From IMG/VR virus record IMGVR_UViG_2585427783_000002: a stretch of 10,125 nucleotides of DNA; one strand, written 5' to 3'. The notes under the pieces were generated by a model that worked only from the letters and a program-made list of their open reading frames with translations, made no database searches and was not told the origin of the DNA. Shown here piece by piece: positions 2,233 through 10,125 of this stretch; the first letter of the stretch is position 1, and each line of letters opens with the position of its first letter. A program made the position numbers and the translations under genes. Origin of the DNA: a virus (Duplodnaviria; Heunggongvirae; Uroviricota; Caudoviricetes).

Positions 2233-3342
2233 TCACTCTGTTTCCGCTATCCATTCCGGGATTTTTGCCTCAAGCTCAAGCTGCGTGGTAAAGCCGCTGT
2301 TATCAATAGTGTGCTCGGCTTTTGCAATGATCCAGTCCTGATTATCAATCTCGCTTTTAAATCCTGTTACCGTACCATGCATTTCGGGGTAGAGTTCTGC
2401 ACGTCCACGCGCCAGCGTGATGGAGAATGATGCGGCTCCGCGTTGTAGCTGCTGCCACTTTGCCGCCGCTGCGCGTCTTGCTGCCTGTTCGTTCTGATAG
2501 GTCTTGCGTAACACAAACACATTGCCTTCCGCGCCTTCCATATAATCACCTTCACGGCTGCTGCTTTTCTCCTTTTTGGGTTTTGGCGGTTTGCGGCGTT
2601 TCACGCTGACTTTTTTCTTTTTCCCGTAATTAAGATCAAGCCAGTAAGCGCGTACCCCCGTATACGCTTCGCGGTCAGCAATGCGGAACTGATGGCGATC
2701 GCCACTGCTGCGCGTGATGGCGAACGAGGGCAACGGCTGGCCCTGTGCGTTCACGCCACCGCCTGGCATGATGAATAACAGATTACCGCTTTTTACCGTA
2801 GTGATTGCGCCCAGCATTTCCGCCATGCGCGTAAGGAAGGACATGTCGCTTTCTTCGGTCTGGTCGGCGTGGTCGATTTCGATATCCATCAGCATTTCGC
2901 TGATTTGTGGTTTCAGACCGTACCGATGAGCGATGGCGGATACCACGCGCTCAACGGTCACATCATGCCAGGACACCTCACGTTTAACGTTAAATTCATC
3001 CCGAAAATCTGCGCTTCTGGCTGAAACAGTCAGCCTGTCCGGCGGTCCTTCGTGAGCGATTTCATCAACAATGTAAGTGCCTTTTTCTGTCAGCGGTTCT
3101 CCTTTCCAGCCAATGAGAACCGTCAGGCGCGCGCCCCGTGGCGGTAGCAGCAACTGACCATCCGCATCATCCAGCGTGATGGTGAGCTGGTCCGCCTCAA
3201 ATCCCCGGTTGTCGGTCAGTGACAGGCTCATCAGGCACTCTGCCACGCCTGACAGCGTTTTACCCTCCGCGAGAATATCAAAATCCGGCATTTTCACGGG
3301 GTCTGTGCCCTGACTGAGCAATTGCATGGTGGTGTCGGTCAT
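2233..3342 (-). CDS. D: P2 gpD-like tail protein (late control gene D)
   Basis: Long minus-strand ORF with the gpD-type layout, including a lysine-rich internal segment. I place the start at the ATG at 3342 because GGAGGGAG sits directly upstream; the track ORF extends to 3474 but that extension has no ribosome-binding site. Confidence 0.88.
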   Translation of the reverse strand: MTDTTMQLLSQGTDPVKMPDFDILAEGKTLSGVAECLMSLSLTDNRGFEADQLTITLDDADGQLLLPPRGARLTVLIGWKGEPLTEKGTYIVDEIAHEGPPDRLTVSARSADFRDEFNVKREVSWHDVTVERVVSAIAHRYGLKPQISEMLMDIEIDHADQTEESDMSFLTRMAEMLGAITTVKSGNLLFIMPGGGVNAQGQPLPSFAITRSSGDRHQFRIADREAYTGVRAYWLDLNYGKKKKVSVKRRKPPKPKKEKSSSREGDYMEGAEGNVFVLRKTYQNEQAARRAAAAKWQQLQRGAASFSITLARGRAELYPEMHGTVTGFKSEIDNQDWIIAKAEHTIDNSGFTTQLELEAKIPEWIAETE

Positions 3343-3499
3343 CTGCTCCCTCCCTGTGCGGCATGGTCGCATGTGCGTGCGGAGGGGGTTACTGCTTTTT
3401 GTTGTCGCCGTGGCGGGAGAACGGCGCAGGGGTGAGATTACGCGCGTGGTGGGTGATGATTGTTGCCGAATCATTTAACGGATACAAGGGGCTGAAGCT

Positions 3500-4684
3500 A
3501 TGAGTGAAACTCGTTTTCATGGTGCCCGTGTTACGGAAAGTACCGACCTGGTAACAGCGATTAATGATGTTGATTCCAGCGTTATCGGTATCGTGGCAAC
3601 GGCGGATGATGCGGACGCGAAGCTGTTCCCGCTGAACAAGCCCACACTGCTGACCCGCGTCAATGACGTGCTGGGAAAATGCGGGACAACGGGGACGCTT
3701 TATCGTGCGCTTAAGGCCATCGCAGACCAGGTGAGCACAAAGGTGATCGTCGTTCGCGTGGCTGAACACAAAGAAGAAAACGGAAAGACGCAGGATCAAC
3801 TGGTTATCGGTGGTTCTGAATCTGACGGCAGCTATACGGGGATGTATGCGCTGCTTGTTGCAGAGCAGGATGAAAGCATCGGATACCGTCCGCGTATTCT
3901 GGCCGCGCCGGAGCTGGACACGGAGGCGGTGACAAAATCCCTGTGCGTGATTGCGGGTAAACTGCGCGCGTTTGTGTATGCCGCATGTCATGGTTGTAAC
4001 ACGATGGCTGAGGCGATTACCTACCGCCAGAAATTCAACGAACGTGAGGTGATGCTCTTATGGCCTGACTTCATCGCCTACAACCCGAAAAGTGGCAAAA
4101 ACGAAACGTTCCCCGCGCCTGCTTATGCGTGCGGCCTTCGTGCGTACATTGACCATGAGCAGGGTTGGCACAAATCGCTGTCCAACGTTCCGGTTAAAAA
4201 TGTGCTGGGGATGTCGAGGCATGTGTTCTGGTCGTTACAGGCCGAAGACAGTGATGCCAACAGCCTCAACAACAAAGAAATCACGACCATTATTCGTCGT
4301 AACGGGTTCCGCTTCTGGGGCAACCGCACACCGGAAACGAACGCCTACATCTTTGAGGTGTATACCCGAACCGCACAGGTGCTGGCTGATTCAATTGCGG
4401 AAGCGCAGTTTGAAACCATCGACAGTCCACTGACGCCTGCGAACGTGAAGGATGTTATCAGTGCCATCAGGGCAAAACTGGATTCACTGGTTACTGCCGG
4501 GAAACTGATTGGGGCGTCGTGCTGGTATGACGTGGTGGATAACAGCACCACGAATTTACGTCAGGGGCGTGTGCGTATTCGCTACAAATATACGCCCGTT
4601 CCGCCGCTGGAAGACATGGAGCTTTACCAGTCGTTTACTGATGAATTCTTTGGTCCCGCATTTGCGGTGCTGGGAGGTGCCTGA
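3500..4684 (+). CDS. FI: Contractile tail sheath protein (P2 FI-like)
   Basis: 394-aa ORF that aligns by eye along its length with P2 FI as I recall it, with shared motifs DQEQGWHK/DHEQGWHK, RRDGFRFWGNRT/RRNGFRFWGNRT and YTPVPPLE. Confidence 0.95.
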   Translation: MSETRFHGARVTESTDLVTAINDVDSSVIGIVATADDADAKLFPLNKPTLLTRVNDVLGKCGTTGTLYRALKAIADQVSTKVIVVRVAEHKEENGKTQDQLVIGGSESDGSYTGMYALLVAEQDESIGYRPRILAAPELDTEAVTKSLCVIAGKLRAFVYAACHGCNTMAEAITYRQKFNEREVMLLWPDFIAYNPKSGKNETFPAPAYACGLRAYIDHEQGWHKSLSNVPVKNVLGMSRHVFWSLQAEDSDANSLNNKEITTIIRRNGFRFWGNRTPETNAYIFEVYTRTAQVLADSIAEAQFETIDSPLTPANVKDVISAIRAKLDSLVTAGKLIGASCWYDVVDNSTTNLRQGRVRIRYKYTPVPPLEDMELYQSFTDEFFGPAFAVLGGA

Positions 4685-5196
4685 TGGCTGTACCAAAACA
4701 TCTTCGCTTTTTTACGCTGTTTGTGGATGGTGAAAACGAAGTGGGTAAGGTGACGTCCGTCACGCCGCCCAAACTGACGCGCAAAACCGACAGCTATCGG
4801 GGTGGTGGCATGATGGGGGCGGTAAGTATTGATCTCGGTCTGGACGACTCCGCGCTTGATGCGAGTTTTGTTATGGGGGGAGCTGTTCGTGCGCTGTTCC
4901 TTAAATATGGCGGCACGATTGACGGCACGCTGCTGCGTTTTGCGGGTGAATACTACACCGATGCAGAAAGCGATCTGTATGAAATCGAGATGCGCGGGCG
5001 TGTGACGGAAATTGATATGGGGGAGGCCAAACAGGGCGAAGCCACATCACACACTTACGCTGTCAAAAACACCTACTACAAGCTGAGCGTTAACGATCGC
5101 CCGCTGTGGGAAATCGACCTGCTGAACCACATCTACCGGAAGGACGGCAAGGACATTGTGCCCGATCGCATCCGTTCCGCGCTTGGGCTTGGCTGA
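4684..5196 (+). CDS. FII: Tail tube protein (P2 FII-like)
   Basis: 170-aa ORF whose ATG overlaps the FI stop (TGATG coupling). It contains PPKLTRK, YRGGGM and VMRGR..EIDMGE..QGE, which match the FII pattern. Confidence 0.93.
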   Translation: MAVPKHLRFFTLFVDGENEVGKVTSVTPPKLTRKTDSYRGGGMMGAVSIDLGLDDSALDASFVMGGAVRALFLKYGGTIDGTLLRFAGEYYTDAESDLYEIEMRGRVTEIDMGEAKQGEATSHTYAVKNTYYKLSVNDRPLWEIDLLNHIYRKDGKDIVPDRIRSALGLG

Positions 5197-5208
5197 TAAG
5201 TAATATGC

Positions 5209-5229
5209 AGGCGGCGCAGTGCGTCGCCT
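5209..5229 (+). other. Intercistronic stem-loop between FII and E
   Basis: Near-perfect inverted repeat AGGCGGCGCA / TGCGTCGCCT with one G-U pair and no U-tract after it, lying between the FII stop (5196) and the AAGGAG Shine-Dalgarno of E. Confidence 0.3.
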
Positions 5230-5250
5230 CTGACTGAAAGGAGACAACTG

Positions 5251-5624
5251 ATGAAAGATATCGATACTGAAACCCGGAATAACACCGTAGCGGATGATGT
5301 GACGGCAGGGGAGGATATGGCTGTCGAACGTGGTGTAAAACTTTCCCGGCCAATTGAGCGTGGTGGCGAAAAAATCACATATGTGGAGATCACCGGGGCT
5401 ATTGAGCAGGCGGGATCCCTGCGTGGTCTGTCGCTGTCTGATGTGCTGAATCTGAAAGCGGATCCATGTTCACGCTGCTGCCTCGCGTGACCTCGCCACG
5501 ACTGGATGAAGTGATGATTAAAAAAATGGCATCACGCGACTTTATTCAGTTGTGCGCTGTGGCTGTAAATTTTATGAGCGAGCCAGACTCTGGCGCGAAG
5601 AGCGTGCAGGAGACGGCAGCCTAA
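5251..5624 (+). pseudogene. E: Tail assembly chaperone E (gpE-like) with an internal frame break
   Basis: Frame 1 (5251 onward) encodes the conserved N-terminal part, including GSLRGLSLSDVLNLKAD, but stops at 5488-5490 after a non-homologous tail. The conserved continuation MFTLLPRVTSPRLDEV...AVAVNF is in the -1 frame from 5466 to 5624. This is consistent with a 1-bp deletion near 5461-5466, or a sequencing error. Confidence 0.6.
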
Positions 5625-5788
5625 TCACCCTGGTGTGCTTTGAGCACATCGAAGATCTGGTGGCGGATATTGCCGCCATTTTTAACTGGTCGCCCGCCGA
5701 AATCTTCATGATGACGCCCGGCGAAGTGGTTAGCTGGCGCGAGCGGGCGGCACTTCGCAGCGGGAATGCAGACAATGAAGACTCTTGA
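5522..5788 (+). CDS. E-prime extension frame, expected to be expressed only as an E+E-prime fusion
   Basis: Frame -1 relative to the distal E frame, open from 5522 to TGA at 5786-5788. It encodes ...IEDLVADIAAIFNWSPAEIFMMTPGEVVSWRERAALR, which resembles the gpE-prime C-terminal domain, and its end overlaps the T start. Confidence 0.5.
   Translation, partial: KNGITRLYSVVRCGCKFYERARLWREERAGDGSLITLVCFEHIEDLVADIAAIFNWSPAEIFMMTPGEVVSWRERAALRSGNADNEDS
5567..5573 (+). promoter_or_regulatory. Candidate -1 programmed frameshift heptamer A AAT TTT for E to E-prime
   Basis: It is the only X-XXY-YYZ heptamer in register with the E frame inside the window where E-prime is open (5522-5621). It sits at the ...VNF position, analogous to where I recall the P2 slippery run lying. 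Confidence 0.4.
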
Positions 5789-8582
5789 TATCCGGGTCGC
5801 TTTCAGCGCCGTTGACAGGCTGACCCGGCCTGCCGAAAACGCCCGCCGCCTGATGGGGCAGTTTGGTGACTCCATCCAGCGAACGCAGGGGGCGATCAAA
5901 AATCTCGAGCGTCAGGCGCGTTCATTTGAGCGCGCCCGTGACGCTGTCAGTAAAGCGGATGCGGGCATCGTGAAAGCACGACGCCAGCTTAACGCCCTTA
6001 ATCAGTTACAACGCACGGGTACAGTGCTCAGCGAAAAACAACAAAAGCTGATGCAGCAGTTAAGCACCCGGCTTGAACGCCTGAATGAATCGCGCACACG
6101 GGAAATTCAGAAAATGCGGGAACTTGGCGGAGAGCTGAAACGCCACGGCATTTCCCTGACAGGCAGCGATAACACCATCCAGCAGGCCATCAGACGCACC
6201 GAACAGTACAACAATCAGCTTGAACGCGAACGGCAGGCGCTTGCGCGTGTAACGCGGGCGCGTGAGCGGTATTCGCGCGCGCAGGAAACCGCGGGAAAAC
6301 TGAAAACAGGTGGTGCGCTGACAATTGGTGCGGCAGCGGCTGGCGGCTATGCTGCCGGGCGTTTTTTGCAGCCTGCGATCGGGTTCGGGAAAGAGATGTC
6401 CCGCGTTCAGGCACTGACGCGAATCGACAAGAACAGCCCGCAGTTTAAGGCGCTGCGTGAGCAGGCGTTAAAACTTGGCTCTGAAACGCAGTTCACCGCA
6501 GGCGATGCCGCCAGTGGGCAGGCATTTCTGGCAATGGCTGGCTTCACACCGCAGGCCATTCAGGCTGCGCTTCCCGGCGTGCTGAGCATGGCAACGGCTG
6601 GCGGTATGGACCTTGGCGAGACGGCAGATATTGGCTCAAATATCCTGACGCAGTTCGGCCTCTCCGCTGACCAGATGGACCGGGTCGGTGACACGCTTAC
6701 AGCAGTGTTTACCCGTACTAACACTGACCTTCGCGCACTGGGCGAAACCATGAAATATGCAGGTCCGGTGGCGGGTAAGCTGGGAATATCGCTGGAGCAG
6801 GCCGCAGCGATGGCGGGCGTGCTGGCGAATATGGGTATCAGAGGGAGTGATGCCGGGACGGCAATGCGTGCCAGCCTGGCTCGTCTGGCATCACCGCCAA
6901 AGGCGGCAGCAGAAGCGCTGAAAGAGCTGGGTGTGTCCGCCTCTGATGCGAACGGCAAAATGCGCCCGATGGAAGATGTGCTGGCCGACCTTTATAAAGC
7001 CACCCGTAAATACGGGGAAGTTGACCGGGTATCGTTCTTTAAGGACATTGCCGGGGAAGAGGCTTTCACGTCGTTTATGGCTCTCGTTGATGCGGCGGGT
7101 GACGGCTCCCTGCCCAAACTGAGAAAAGAACTTGAGGGCGCACGCGGTGAGGCTGAACGCACGGCAAAGGTTATGGCCAATAACCTTGATGGCGACCTGA
7201 AATCACTCGGCAGTGCATGGGAAGGGCTGCGTATCCGCATTGCAGATCTGATTGATGGTCCGCTGCGTTCTGTCACGCAGTGGCTCACGCGGGTGGTCTC
7301 AAAGGTGACGGCGCTGGCACAGGCCCATCCGGTACTGACGCGCCAGTTACTGATAGCAGGCGGTGCGCTGCTGGCAATGACTGCAACGGTTGGCTCGTTG
7401 TCGCTGGTTATTGGAGTGCTTCACGGGAAGCTGGCCACGTTGCGTCTTGGTTTTTCTCTCCTGACCGGATCAATGAATGCTGTCAGGCTCCTGCCAGCAC
7501 TATGGGGAATGGTGACGGGTTCCGTTTCGTTACTGGGGGGCGCTATCGGGGCGCTGTTCAGCCCGGTCGGATTGATTGCTGCTGCGTTTGTGGCTGCGGC
7601 GGTTCTCATCTGGAAATACTGGGAACCCATCAAGGCGTTTTATGCCGGGGTGTTCAGCGGGATTATGGAGCGGCTGGCCCCGTTACGCGAAACCTTTGAA
7701 CGGTTTGGTCCTGTTTTTGACGCAATCGGAAGCGGGATAAGTCAGGTGTTTAACTGGTTTAAATCGTTGCTGTCACCGATGGAGTCCAGCAAGGAAACGC
7801 TGGATAAATGTACCAGTGCTGGCGAGATATTCGGTAACGTTCTTGGCGGTGCGTTACAGCTTGTTCTGACGCCCGCAAAAATGTTGCTGGATACGCTGGC
7901 GTGGATACTTGAAAAACTCGGTGTGCTTCCGGATGAAGCGGAAAGGGCGAGAAAGAAAATCGAAGACGCACAGCGTGCGGCCATTCTTCAGGACAAGGTT
8001 GCTCTGTTTCAGGGAGACATTGCGAAAATCAATCCGCCGAAGTCTGCGGAAAATGGCAATGGCACCGGAGGTGATAAACCCAAAGACAATAAACCGCTCA
8101 CAGACAGCAATACCGGTACGCTACGCAGACTCAGCAAAATTGCTGATAACACAGGTAAGCTGGTTGATGAGACGAAAAAACGTATTGGCCCCGGCGATAT
8201 TGTCTTTAAGAACCTGCCCCGCGCACTTGCCGTTCGTGGGGAGTGGCAGGAGCGGAAGATTGTGCAGGTCAGTAAGCCTGCCCCCGCAATTAATATCACA
8301 CCCGTGGTCCCGGCTCCGCTGCCTCCGGCGCTGGTCCCTGTTGTTGCGGCCAGCTCCCGCCCGGTGGCGGAGGCCATACGATCTCCAGTGGCATCAGTTC
8401 CTGTAACTTCCCGTAACCGGGAGCCTGTTGCCTCCGGATTTGGTGGTGAAATTCATGTTCATCTGCATAACGTTGTTACGCAGAATCCCCGCGAACTGGC
8501 GAAACTGGTCGGTGAAATGGTCAGGGCAGAAATGGAACGGCGCGCCCGTGCCGGGCGTGGCAGTTTTTACGATAAAGATTGA
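5766..8582 (+). CDS. T: Tail tape measure protein (P2 gpT-like)
   Basis: 938-aa ORF with a coiled-coil-rich N-terminal region, a glycine/alanine-rich hydrophobic central segment and a proline-rich C-terminus, sitting between E/E-prime and U. The start could instead be the ATG at 5775. Confidence 0.9.
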   Translation: MQTMKTLDIRVAFSAVDRLTRPAENARRLMGQFGDSIQRTQGAIKNLERQARSFERARDAVSKADAGIVKARRQLNALNQLQRTGTVLSEKQQKLMQQLSTRLERLNESRTREIQKMRELGGELKRHGISLTGSDNTIQQAIRRTEQYNNQLERERQALARVTRARERYSRAQETAGKLKTGGALTIGAAAAGGYAAGRFLQPAIGFGKEMSRVQALTRIDKNSPQFKALREQALKLGSETQFTAGDAASGQAFLAMAGFTPQAIQAALPGVLSMATAGGMDLGETADIGSNILTQFGLSADQMDRVGDTLTAVFTRTNTDLRALGETMKYAGPVAGKLGISLEQAAAMAGVLANMGIRGSDAGTAMRASLARLASPPKAAAEALKELGVSASDANGKMRPMEDVLADLYKATRKYGEVDRVSFFKDIAGEEAFTSFMALVDAAGDGSLPKLRKELEGARGEAERTAKVMANNLDGDLKSLGSAWEGLRIRIADLIDGPLRSVTQWLTRVVSKVTALAQAHPVLTRQLLIAGGALLAMTATVGSLSLVIGVLHGKLATLRLGFSLLTGSMNAVRLLPALWGMVTGSVSLLGGAIGALFSPVGLIAAAFVAAAVLIWKYWEPIKAFYAGVFSGIMERLAPLRETFERFGPVFDAIGSGISQVFNWFKSLLSPMESSKETLDKCTSAGEIFGNVLGGALQLVLTPAKMLLDTLAWILEKLGVLPDEAERARKKIEDAQRAAILQDKVALFQGDIAKINPPKSAENGNGTGGDKPKDNKPLTDSNTGTLRRLSKIADNTGKLVDETKKRIGPGDIVFKNLPRALAVRGEWQERKIVQVSKPAPAINITPVVPAPLPPALVPVVAASSRPVAEAIRSPVASVPVTSRNREPVASGFGGEIHVHLHNVVTQNPRELAKLVGEMVRAEMERRARAGRGSFYDKD

Positions 8583-8594
8583 GGAGTCATGGCC

Positions 8595-9083
8595 ATGATG
8601 ATGATCTACGGCATGTTTGTTTTTGAGCTGCGCACGCTGCCGCATCAGCAGTTACAGCAAAACAAAAGCTGGCGGCATGTGAAAAATGAACGCGTTAACC
8701 GTTCAGCAAGCTGGCAGTATATCGGTGCAGGTGATGATCGCATCGTTCTTTCTGGTGTGCTTTATCCTGAAATTACAGGTGGCGAAGTGTCGCTGTCGCT
8801 GCTGACCACGCAGGCGTATACAGGACGACCCTGGCCTTTGATTGATGGCGTCGGGCAGATTTACGGCATGTATGTCCTGACCGGAACGAACACGACCCGT
8901 TCCGAGTTTGATCGCTACGGTAAGGCGAAAAAGATAGAATTTTCACTGACCCTTGAACGCTGTGATGAGGATTTGCGGGAGCGCCTGCAATCCTCATCGT
9001 TCAGCGATATGCTGTCCGGCTTCAAAGATAAAGTGACATCATCCCTTAACAGCGCGGCCAGTTCAGTTAAAGGGCTGTTCTGA
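8595..9083 (+). CDS. U: Tail protein U (P2 gpU-like)
   Basis: Translation from 8595 begins MMMIYGMFVFELRTLPHQ, matching the gpU N-terminus as I recall it. AGGAG at 8582-8586 is spaced 8 nt from this ATG; the 8589 ATG in the track is only 2 nt from it. Confidence 0.88.
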   Translation: MMMIYGMFVFELRTLPHQQLQQNKSWRHVKNERVNRSASWQYIGAGDDRIVLSGVLYPEITGGEVSLSLLTTQAYTGRPWPLIDGVGQIYGMYVLTGTNTTRSEFDRYGKAKKIEFSLTLERCDEDLRERLQSSSFSDMLSGFKDKVTSSLNSAASSVKGLF

Positions 9084-9090
9084 TTTAATG

Positions 9091-9122
9091 CTGGCCACTC
9101 ATACCTGGTAATAAGTGGCCAG
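9091..9122 (+). terminator. Stem-loop downstream of U; possible operon terminator
   Basis: 9-bp stem CTGGCCACT (9091-9099) / AGTGGCCAG (9114-9122) around a 14-nt loop. The following T-tract is weak (TCTTAAC). Confidence 0.3.
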
Positions 9123-9245
9123 TCTTAACACTCACCATTTGATTGCACCCGCGTTAACGATTTGTTACTGGGTATCAGACATGCTGGATAGCCAGTAGAA
9201 ACATACCATTAAAATTATTACAATAATTGGTCACATGATTATCTT

Positions 9246-9470
9246 ATGCTGAATAATAGAGATATGAATATTAATGAACTTAAAGACTGTATTCACTATG
9301 AAGTAATCGGTAGCGAGCGTCCTTTCTCCTGGCGAAAGGCAATTGTTCGCGCAATAAAACATAGAAGACTTCGTTATTTATTTTGGTGGCGCATAGCCAA
9401 ATACCTTTTTGATAAAGGCGGATACTGCCGGAAGATTGCGGGGAAAATAGAACGTTTCATTCTTGGGTAG
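9246..9470 (+). pseudogene. 5' fragment of a cargo gene cut by IS1; possibly a hexapeptide-repeat acetyltransferase
   Basis: ORF in an AT-rich segment whose stop codon TAG (9468-9470) is supplied by the IS1 terminal repeat. The segment RLRYLFWWRIAKYLFDKGG..KIAGKIERFI resembles the N-terminal region that precedes the hexapeptide repeats in CysE/WcaB-type acetyltransferases. That assignment is tentative and from memory. Confidence 0.45.
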
Positions 9471-9488
9471 TGACTCCAACTTACTGAT
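9466..9488. repeat. IS1 terminal inverted repeat (IRR-type end)
   Basis: Matches the recalled IS1 IRR GGTAATGACTCCAACTTATTGAT with two substitutions. Confidence 0.85.
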
Positions 9489-9985
9489 AGTGTTTTATGT
9501 TCAGATAATGCCCGATGACCTTGTCATGCAGCTCCACCGATTTTGAGAACGACAGTGACTTCCGTCCCAGCCTTGCCAGATGTTGTCTCAGATTCAGATT
9601 ATGTCGCTCAATGCGCTGAGTGTAACACTTGCTGATAACGTGCAGCTTTCCCTTCAGGCGTGATTCATACAGCGGCCAGCCATCCGTCATCCATACCACG
9701 ACCTCAAAGGCCGACAGCAGGCTCAGAAGACGCGCCAGTGTGGCCAGAGTGCGTTCACCGAAAAACGTGGGCCACGACAGTCCTGCGTACCCTGTCATAC
9801 GCGTAAAACAGCCAGCGCTGGCGTGATTTAGCCCCGACGTAGCTCCACTGTTCGTCCATTTCCGCGCAGACGATGACGTCCCTGCCCGGCTGTATGCGCG
9901 AGGTTACCGACTGCGGCCTGAGTTTTTTAAATGGCGGAAAATCGTGTTGAGGCCAACGCCAATAATGCGGGCAGTTGCCCGGCAT
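9481..9985 (-). pseudogene. insB: IS1 insB, frameshifted
   Basis: InsB homology is split between two overlapping frames (track ORFs 9755..9985 and 9481..9798). The break is at the A-run 9761-9765, where this copy has one extra base relative to the canonical ...VVAHVFGERT... coding sequence. Confidence 0.7.
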
Positions 9986-10125
9986 CCAACGCCATTCATG
10001 GCCATATCAATGATTTTCTGGTGCGTACCGGGTTGAGAAGCGGTGTAAGTGAACTGCAGTTGCCATGTTTTACGGCAATGAGAGCAGAGATAGCGCTGAT
10101 GTCCGGCAGTGCTTTTGCCGTTACG
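9904..10125 (-). CDS. insA: IS1 insA, 3' part (5' end beyond the window)
   Basis: The minus-strand translation from the window edge reads [25 protein letters not shown]...LKNSGRSR and stops at 9904-9906, matching InsA. Confidence 0.85.
9922..9928 (-). promoter_or_regulatory. IS1 AAAAAAC programmed -1 frameshift motif (insA to insAB)
   Basis: Plus-strand GTTTTTT at 9922-9928 is the reverse complement of the IS1 slippery heptamer, located at the 3' end of insA. Confidence 0.7.

Follow-up and report, generated by a model that had tools for sequence, protein, structure and literature searches.

The P2 chaperone pair E and E+E′ is the counterpart of the lambda pair G and GT. Both lambda products are required for tail assembly, and the same is reportedly true of both products in P2. 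Here, we examine a homologue of this gene in a 10,125-nucleotide stretch of DNA (virus record IMGVR_UViG_2585427783_000002, Caudoviricetes; hereafter, the window, to which all coordinates refer unless stated otherwise). The reading frame of the gene changes near position 5463, upstream of the place where a programmed -1 frameshift would be expected from the alignment with P2. This raises the question of whether the change is a decoding signal, a mutation in the phage genome or an error in the assembly from which the record derives. A preliminary description of the locus, made from the sequence alone, had proposed a 1-bp deletion.

Source and genomic setting

The window matches positions 118,831-128,955 of contig JOQM01000008.1 (GCA_000714095.1) without a difference, and the contig ends 1 nt beyond it. 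This contig belongs to the draft assembly of E. coli 5_366_08_S4_C2, made from Illumina reads with MaSuRCA. The isolate, 5-366-08_S4_C2, comes from a study of Tanzanian children, where it was sequenced on an Illumina HiSeq 2000 with 100-bp reads, assembled with MaSuRCA into 225 contigs and typed as ST5348, phylogroup A (Richter et al. 2018). The WGS accession is JOQM00000000, and Table S1 gives the sample as SRSS568238, presumably SRS568238. ST5348 is listed once for the subject. Among sister colonies obtained from the stool sample, a type was retrieved for S4_C1 only (ST5793), and no clone-mate was found among these typed colonies.

The window opens with serS (1-1293), which is adjoined by a P88-like prophage of the genus Xuanwuvirus (Peduoviridae, the P2 family). 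Directly 3′ of serS, on the strand opposite to genes FI to U, are a hok/gef-like toxin ORF (1599-1739), ogr (1930-2190) and gene D (2233-3342 or 2233-3474), all on the minus strand. The tail genes follow on the plus strand, beginning with the sheath gene FI (3500-4684) and the tail tube gene, the homologue of P2 FII (4684-5196). The latter is a 170-aa ORF with a PF04985 (Phage_tube) domain, and its counterparts in relatives are annotated as major tail tube protein. The E region (5251-5788) lies between FII and the tape measure gene, the homologue of P2 T (5775-8582; PF10145), and the gene for gpU ends at 9083. The preliminary description had regarded the neighbouring tail genes as intact, and FII and T are both indeed intact.

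On the 3′ side of gpU, an acetyltransferase-like cargo ORF (9246-9470) retains its first ~210 nt and is cut by IS1 at ~9465. Its counterpart in E. coli RIVM_C037166 is a 546-nt ORF annotated as 'serine acetyltransferase'. The IS1 copy occupies 9466-10125 on the minus strand and reaches the contig end. Its insB is divided into two overlapping ORFs by one additional A in the run at 9761-9765, where the coding strand reads T5 rather than T4, and five substitutions are clustered beside this run at 9770-9790. IS1 matched more than 74,000 places in complete E. coli genomes, where the best identity was 97.9% among the matches listed. The copy is either a degenerate or rare variant, or the consensus of a collapsed repeat at the contig end.

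E. coli RIVM_C037166 shares this left end, which there runs on into a complete prophage, whereas in strain R8 an IS1 links the tail block straight to cox/C/int, which makes that prophage a true remnant. As the contig studied here simply ends in IS1, the label 'remnant' that was initially given to its prophage is unproven. The window is a natural mosaic. It is almost identical to the RIVM_C037166 type at 1-2800 and 6400-9465, with two substitutions over 6600-8400, and at about 3600-6400 it is closest to E. coli 4/0 (hereafter, the 4/0-type block). Among the relatives, there are two unrelated versions of the N-terminal ~25 codons of E, which we refer to as the 124-aa and 121-aa types.

A single base is missing from the E homologue

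Translation of both frames confirmed that the gpE sequence switches from frame 1 to the -1 frame near 5463/5466. Frame 1, starting at the ATG at 5251, contains 71 homologous codons (ending in LSDVLNLKAD), followed by eight out-of-frame codons (PCSRCCLA) and a TGA stop at 5488-5490, so the stop after a non-homologous tail is also as initially described. The -1 frame is open from 5442, has its first ATG at 5466, where it reads MFTLLPRVTSPRLDEV, and ends in a TAA at 5622-5624. Its 52 codons from 5466 to 5624 encode the peptide MFTLLPRVTSPRLDEVMIKKMASRDFIQLCAVAVNFMSEPDSGAKSVQETAA. These plus-strand fragments, 5251-5490 and 5466-5624, are present in GenBank as KEL34742.1 (79 aa) and KEL34743.1 (52 aa), both named 'putative phage tail protein E'.

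We aligned the region with four phages and three E. coli chromosomes and found exactly one base missing at the break, an A between 5463 and 5464 on the plus strand, at about contig positions 124,293-124,294. The junction reads GCGGATACCATG in relatives of the 124-codon type and GCGGAATCCATG in those of the P88 type, compared with GCGGATCCATG in the window, i.e., GGAT|CC instead of GGATACC or GGAATCC. Expressed in codons, the 124-codon-type relatives have GCG GAT ACC ATG TTC (A D T M F) and the P88-type relatives have GCG GAA TCC ATG TTT (A E S M F), while the window, one A short, has GCGGATCCATGTTC. In the Xuanwuvirus phages and the matching E. coli prophages, E is an unbroken ORF of 375 or 366 nt, whereas the window has 374 nt divided over two frames.

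Profile searches gave the same picture. The 5′ fragment matched phrog_103 at profile positions 4-66 (E-value of 1.6e-15) and the 3′ fragment matched it at 68-118 (E-value of 2.4e-14). When one A was restored, these two partial matches were replaced by a single match over positions 4-118 (E-value of 2.3e-36). The alignments, the two profile halves and the lack of a slippery motif at the break (see below) support the proposal that the frame change reflects a 1-bp deletion rather than a programmed event. Likewise, the alignments and profile matches bear out that the chaperone, as written, is truncated and cut off from its E′ extension.

Between the sheath gene and gpU, the missing A and an A4/A3 difference in the 5′UTR of E are the only indels relative to Citrobacter phage Shae_phiSM. 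The A3 run (5237-5239, plus strand) precedes the AGGAG ribosome-binding site. The 124-codon-type relatives have one A more and the P88 type has the same number, and the run shows no gap against a homologue with a P88-type leader (L005). This variant is a harmless polymorphism. The deletion also makes a second GGATCC (BamHI) palindrome at 5460-5465, 46 nt after an existing one at 5414-5419. Since the source is a natural isolate, we set aside a cloning scar and treat the new palindrome as a coincidence.

Is the frame change programmed?

We next considered whether the switch at 5463-5466 could be a recoding event that is translated through by design. All that speaks for this is that homology extends into the -1 frame, and that -1 frameshifting is expected elsewhere in this gene. 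However, a scripted search of the upstream frame identified no in-frame X_XXY_YYZ heptamer, and the interval 5440-5490 contains no such heptamer in any frame and no homopolymer of four or more bases, in agreement with the preliminary description. Homologues that share the frame switch would have argued for translation through the break, yet every homologue that we examined is single-frame here, and all aligned phages and chromosomes agree. Neither a slippery sequence nor a switch conserved in homologues was thus found at 5463-5466.

The deletion allele was also sought in larger sequence collections. Megablast searches of 5,426 complete E. coli genomes with queries of 601 nt and 71 nt showed that it was absent from the 1,334 genomes with a homologue, all of which have the base that the window lacks. 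The best match of the 71-nt query in these complete genomes was 97.2% over 72 subject bases. Exact-pattern scans of species-representative genome, metagenome and viral contig collections did not detect the deleted junction, while 105 viral contigs contained the junction without the deletion. Most complete E ORFs in the viral contigs (93/102) are 124 aa long. Eight of the other nine are single-frame at the break and have different N-termini or starts.

Considering that the break has no slip motif, that the allele is unseen elsewhere and that 105 viral contigs carry the undeleted junction, the sequence evidence indicates that the break is a private, unprogrammed lesion. Programmed recoding at 5463-5466 is effectively refuted by this comparison at the sequence level, and we assign it a negligible probability.

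The candidate downstream slippery site and the E′ extension

The region 5251-5788 makes use of three reading frames. Its first change of frame is the lesion, and only the second, at 5567-5573, is predicted to be biological, so a pipeline that scans this gene would meet two -1 frame changes of which one is a putative decoding signal. The candidate -1 slippery heptamer at 5567-5573 (plus strand), A_AAT_TTT, is intact, lies 100 nt downstream of the lesion and aligns with T_TTT_TTG of P2. No other in-frame X_XXY_YYZ heptamer exists in the zone where E and E′ overlap. In all scorable related viral contigs (104/104), the sequence at this site is AAATTTTAT, and the window and these close relatives read A_AAT_TTT_ATG. 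In this lineage, A_AAT_TTT_ATG replaces the classical T_TTT_TTG of P2, whereas P88 has A_AAT_TTT_TTG, in which both motifs overlap.

The E′ extension occupies 5574-5788 on the plus strand in a second -1 frame, which is open from 5522 to 5788 and overlaps the start of T at 5775. It contains the Phage_P2_GpE domain (PF06528, 45 bits with a cut-off of 23) and matches phrog_1756 (E-value of 1.7e-38). The region 3′ of the slip site showed no stimulatory RNA structure beyond that of shuffled controls (z = -0.84); the lack of an outstanding structure at this position has likewise been reported for P2.

An A7 run at 5520-5526 was considered as an alternative slip site and rejected. In P88, a stop codon in the -1 frame separates this run from E′, and the P2 alignment places the junction at the TTT codon at 5571-5573 instead. 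Annotation pipelines (PGAP and others) treat E′ as an independent ORF of 51 aa with a GTG start at 5633, named 'GpE family phage tail protein', and not as part of the -1 product E+E′. This miscall is systematic and affects more than 1,000 E. coli genomes.

Mutation or assembly error

A private lesion may be present in the strain or only in its draft genome. We consider a real mutation the probable explanation and an artefact a possible but less likely one, leaving a small remainder for exotic readings. Several observations argue for a real deletion. The data are 100-bp Illumina HiSeq reads and the break does not fall in a homopolymer. Elsewhere, the prophage has no unpaired indels relative to Shae_phiSM, and there are almost no differences from RIVM_C037166 over 6600-8400. 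Moreover, such lesions do occur in E, as illustrated by viral contig L092 (IMGVR_UViG_2548876948_000007, minus strand). This contig has an independent 1-bp insertion of a C (TTGCCTCG to TTGCCCTCG), located ~30 nt downstream of the equivalent of window position 5463, which truncates E to 86 aa. Conversely, the allele is a singleton. Look-ups of exact matches in a collection of 15 billion proteins recorded each fragment once, and found both truncated proteins and the tape measure protein on the source contig only. A search for a sister genome via the exact tape measure protein yielded none, and hence no independent assembly with the allele. A second frame-breaking 1-bp indel, that in IS1, is located 4.3 kb away on the same contig, and could point to consensus errors in repeated DNA.

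If the draft is in error, E would be intact in the strain and the A would be missing from the assembly only. Such an error could have occurred if reads from a second P2-like prophage copy of the GGAATCC type were merged with those of the GGATACC type, and in a collapsed or chimeric consensus GGATCC may represent a hybrid between GGAT(A)CC and GGA(A)TCC. Some E. coli genomes do contain two to three copies of the E region. This explanation is also in line with a singleton allele in a draft MaSuRCA assembly of 225 contigs, and with the IS1 on the same contig, whose extra A breaks insB and whose identity is at most 97.9% among the matches listed for the complete E. coli genomes searched. Furthermore, the window differs from the 4/0-type allele by six substitutions between 5463 and 5622, each of which is a P88-type state and lies within 160 nt downstream of the break. 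The 4/0-type allele is very common, being found on at least 1,000 contigs, whereas the repaired protein and DNA haplotype of the window were found nowhere else. Still, Illumina consensus indels outside homopolymers are rare, and 7.5 kb of prophage contain no further unpaired indel. P88-type and 4/0-type states are as little as 3 nt apart, a pattern too fine for a k-mer path switch, and natural mosaics on such a fine scale do occur. When counted in 200-nt bins, differences are not denser around E than in other parts of the 4/0-type block. Weighing these observations, we infer that the deletion is present in the strain's own DNA, and regard an assembly or consensus error as the less likely, though by no means negligible, alternative.

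Predicted consequences for tail assembly

The explanation that we favour is that the P2 gene E homologue of a P88-like prophage beside serS lost one A between 5463 and 5464. In the intact gene, a fraction of the ribosomes would shift by -1 at A_AAT_TTT and produce the E+E′ fusion. In the window, ribosomes starting at the ATG at 5251 would add 71 native and eight junk residues before terminating at 5488-5490, and would never reach the slippery site at 5567-5573. Because of this stop, neither full-length gpE nor gpE+E′ is expected to be made. The RefSeq record of P2 lists both E and E+E′ as 'essential tail protein', with the -1 site as a misc_feature, and on this basis the prophage would be defective in tail assembly despite its intact neighbouring tail genes. 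The preliminary statement that it would be unable to assemble tails similarly derives from P2, and we retain the loss of function as a prediction by analogy with P2. Taken together, a genuine, unprogrammed single-base deletion in the E homologue that leaves the prophage tail-defective is the reading that we find reasonably likely.

The split gene might retain part of its function if translation restarted at the ATG at 5466, or if a low level of spontaneous -1 shifting occurred within 5442-5487. A restart product would be a C-terminal piece that still includes the slip site and E′, resulting in a two-piece chaperone. In favour of this, the ATG at 5466 precedes the frame-1 stop at 5488-5490 by 22 nt, the open stretch of the -1 frame begins at 5442, and the downstream slip site and E′ are intact. 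However, the Shine-Dalgarno-like bases preceding the ATG at 5466 consist of GGA only, at a distance of 3 nt, and the interval 5442-5487 contains no slippery motif. The break also falls between the two most conserved motifs, AGSLRG.SL and LLPR.T.P, and the arrangement is found in no other genome, indicating that it is not under selection. We therefore consider residual function of the split gene very unlikely. The stricter version, in which the deletion is real and tails are supported by the C-terminal half together with the 79-residue N-terminal fragment, is slightly more improbable again; if true, it would mean that a gpE-type chaperone can work in two pieces.

Returning to the deletion as a loss of function, the lesion is a case of ordinary prophage decay or a rare assembly error, and not a new decoding signal. 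If it is real, the serS-linked P88-like prophage would be tail-defective and constitute another instance of prophage decay. In the event of an artefact, a single-base draft error gave rise to two spurious 'phage tail protein E' fragments in GenBank, KEL34742.1 and KEL34743.1. The gene and the phage family are well known and both fragments were already in GenBank, so the finding carries little weight beyond annotation and opens no biological question either way.

Comparison with P2 and related phages

The E homologue (5251-5624) has the location typical of P2, between FII (4684-5196) and T (5775-8582). In addition to the phrog_103 match of the repaired protein (E-value of 2.3e-36), a tblastn search against P2 E showed 34.8% identity (E-value of 4e-7). 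The repaired E+E′ product aligned end-to-end with P2 gpE+E′ (BLASTP, 33% identity, E-value of 2e-28) with the slip junction in register, VNF|YER being opposite VGFL|VAE of P2. PF10109 (Phage_TAC_7) scored 20.7 bits on the repaired protein, under its 25-bit cut-off, so Pfam alone would not place the gene. The -1 extension with its Phage_P2_GpE domain ends over the start of T, and an in-frame heptamer, a candidate slippery site by its sequence, is present at the position of the P2 site. What the window lacks is an unbroken frame that connects the start codon with the slippery site. As judged from these sequence features, E as written is a pseudogene of the P2 gpE / gpE+E′ family. A sequence search of the PDB for a solved relative gave no meaningful match.

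The closest relatives of the region are prophages and phages of the same group. Over 5200-5800, the window shares 98.7% nucleotide identity with E. coli prophages and 85-97% with Escherichia phages P88, P88_4B11 and 503458 and Citrobacter phage Shae_phiSM. The gene order ogr and D (on the opposite strand), FI, FII, E, E′, T, U is common to the Xuanwuvirus relatives, and integration next to serS is common to the window and the matching E. coli prophages. In P2, the order is FI, FII, E, T, U, D, ogr; the D-ogr block is thus inverted in the genus to which the window belongs.

The broken gene resembles the frameshift pseudogenes of decaying prophages, being a structural gene that is conserved apart from a one-base indel. 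It is unlike them in one respect only, namely that an assembly error could also account for this case.

In P2, a -1 shift at TTTTTTG (T_TTT_TTG) adds an extension to the 91-aa E protein, resulting in an E+E′ product of 142 aa (PMC3091744; RefSeq). The protein type found in the window is longer than P2 E (124 aa versus 91 aa), the extra length consisting of an N-terminal stretch of ~25 residues and a longer C-terminus. The 1-bp deletion, 100 nt before the slip site, is peculiar to the window copy.
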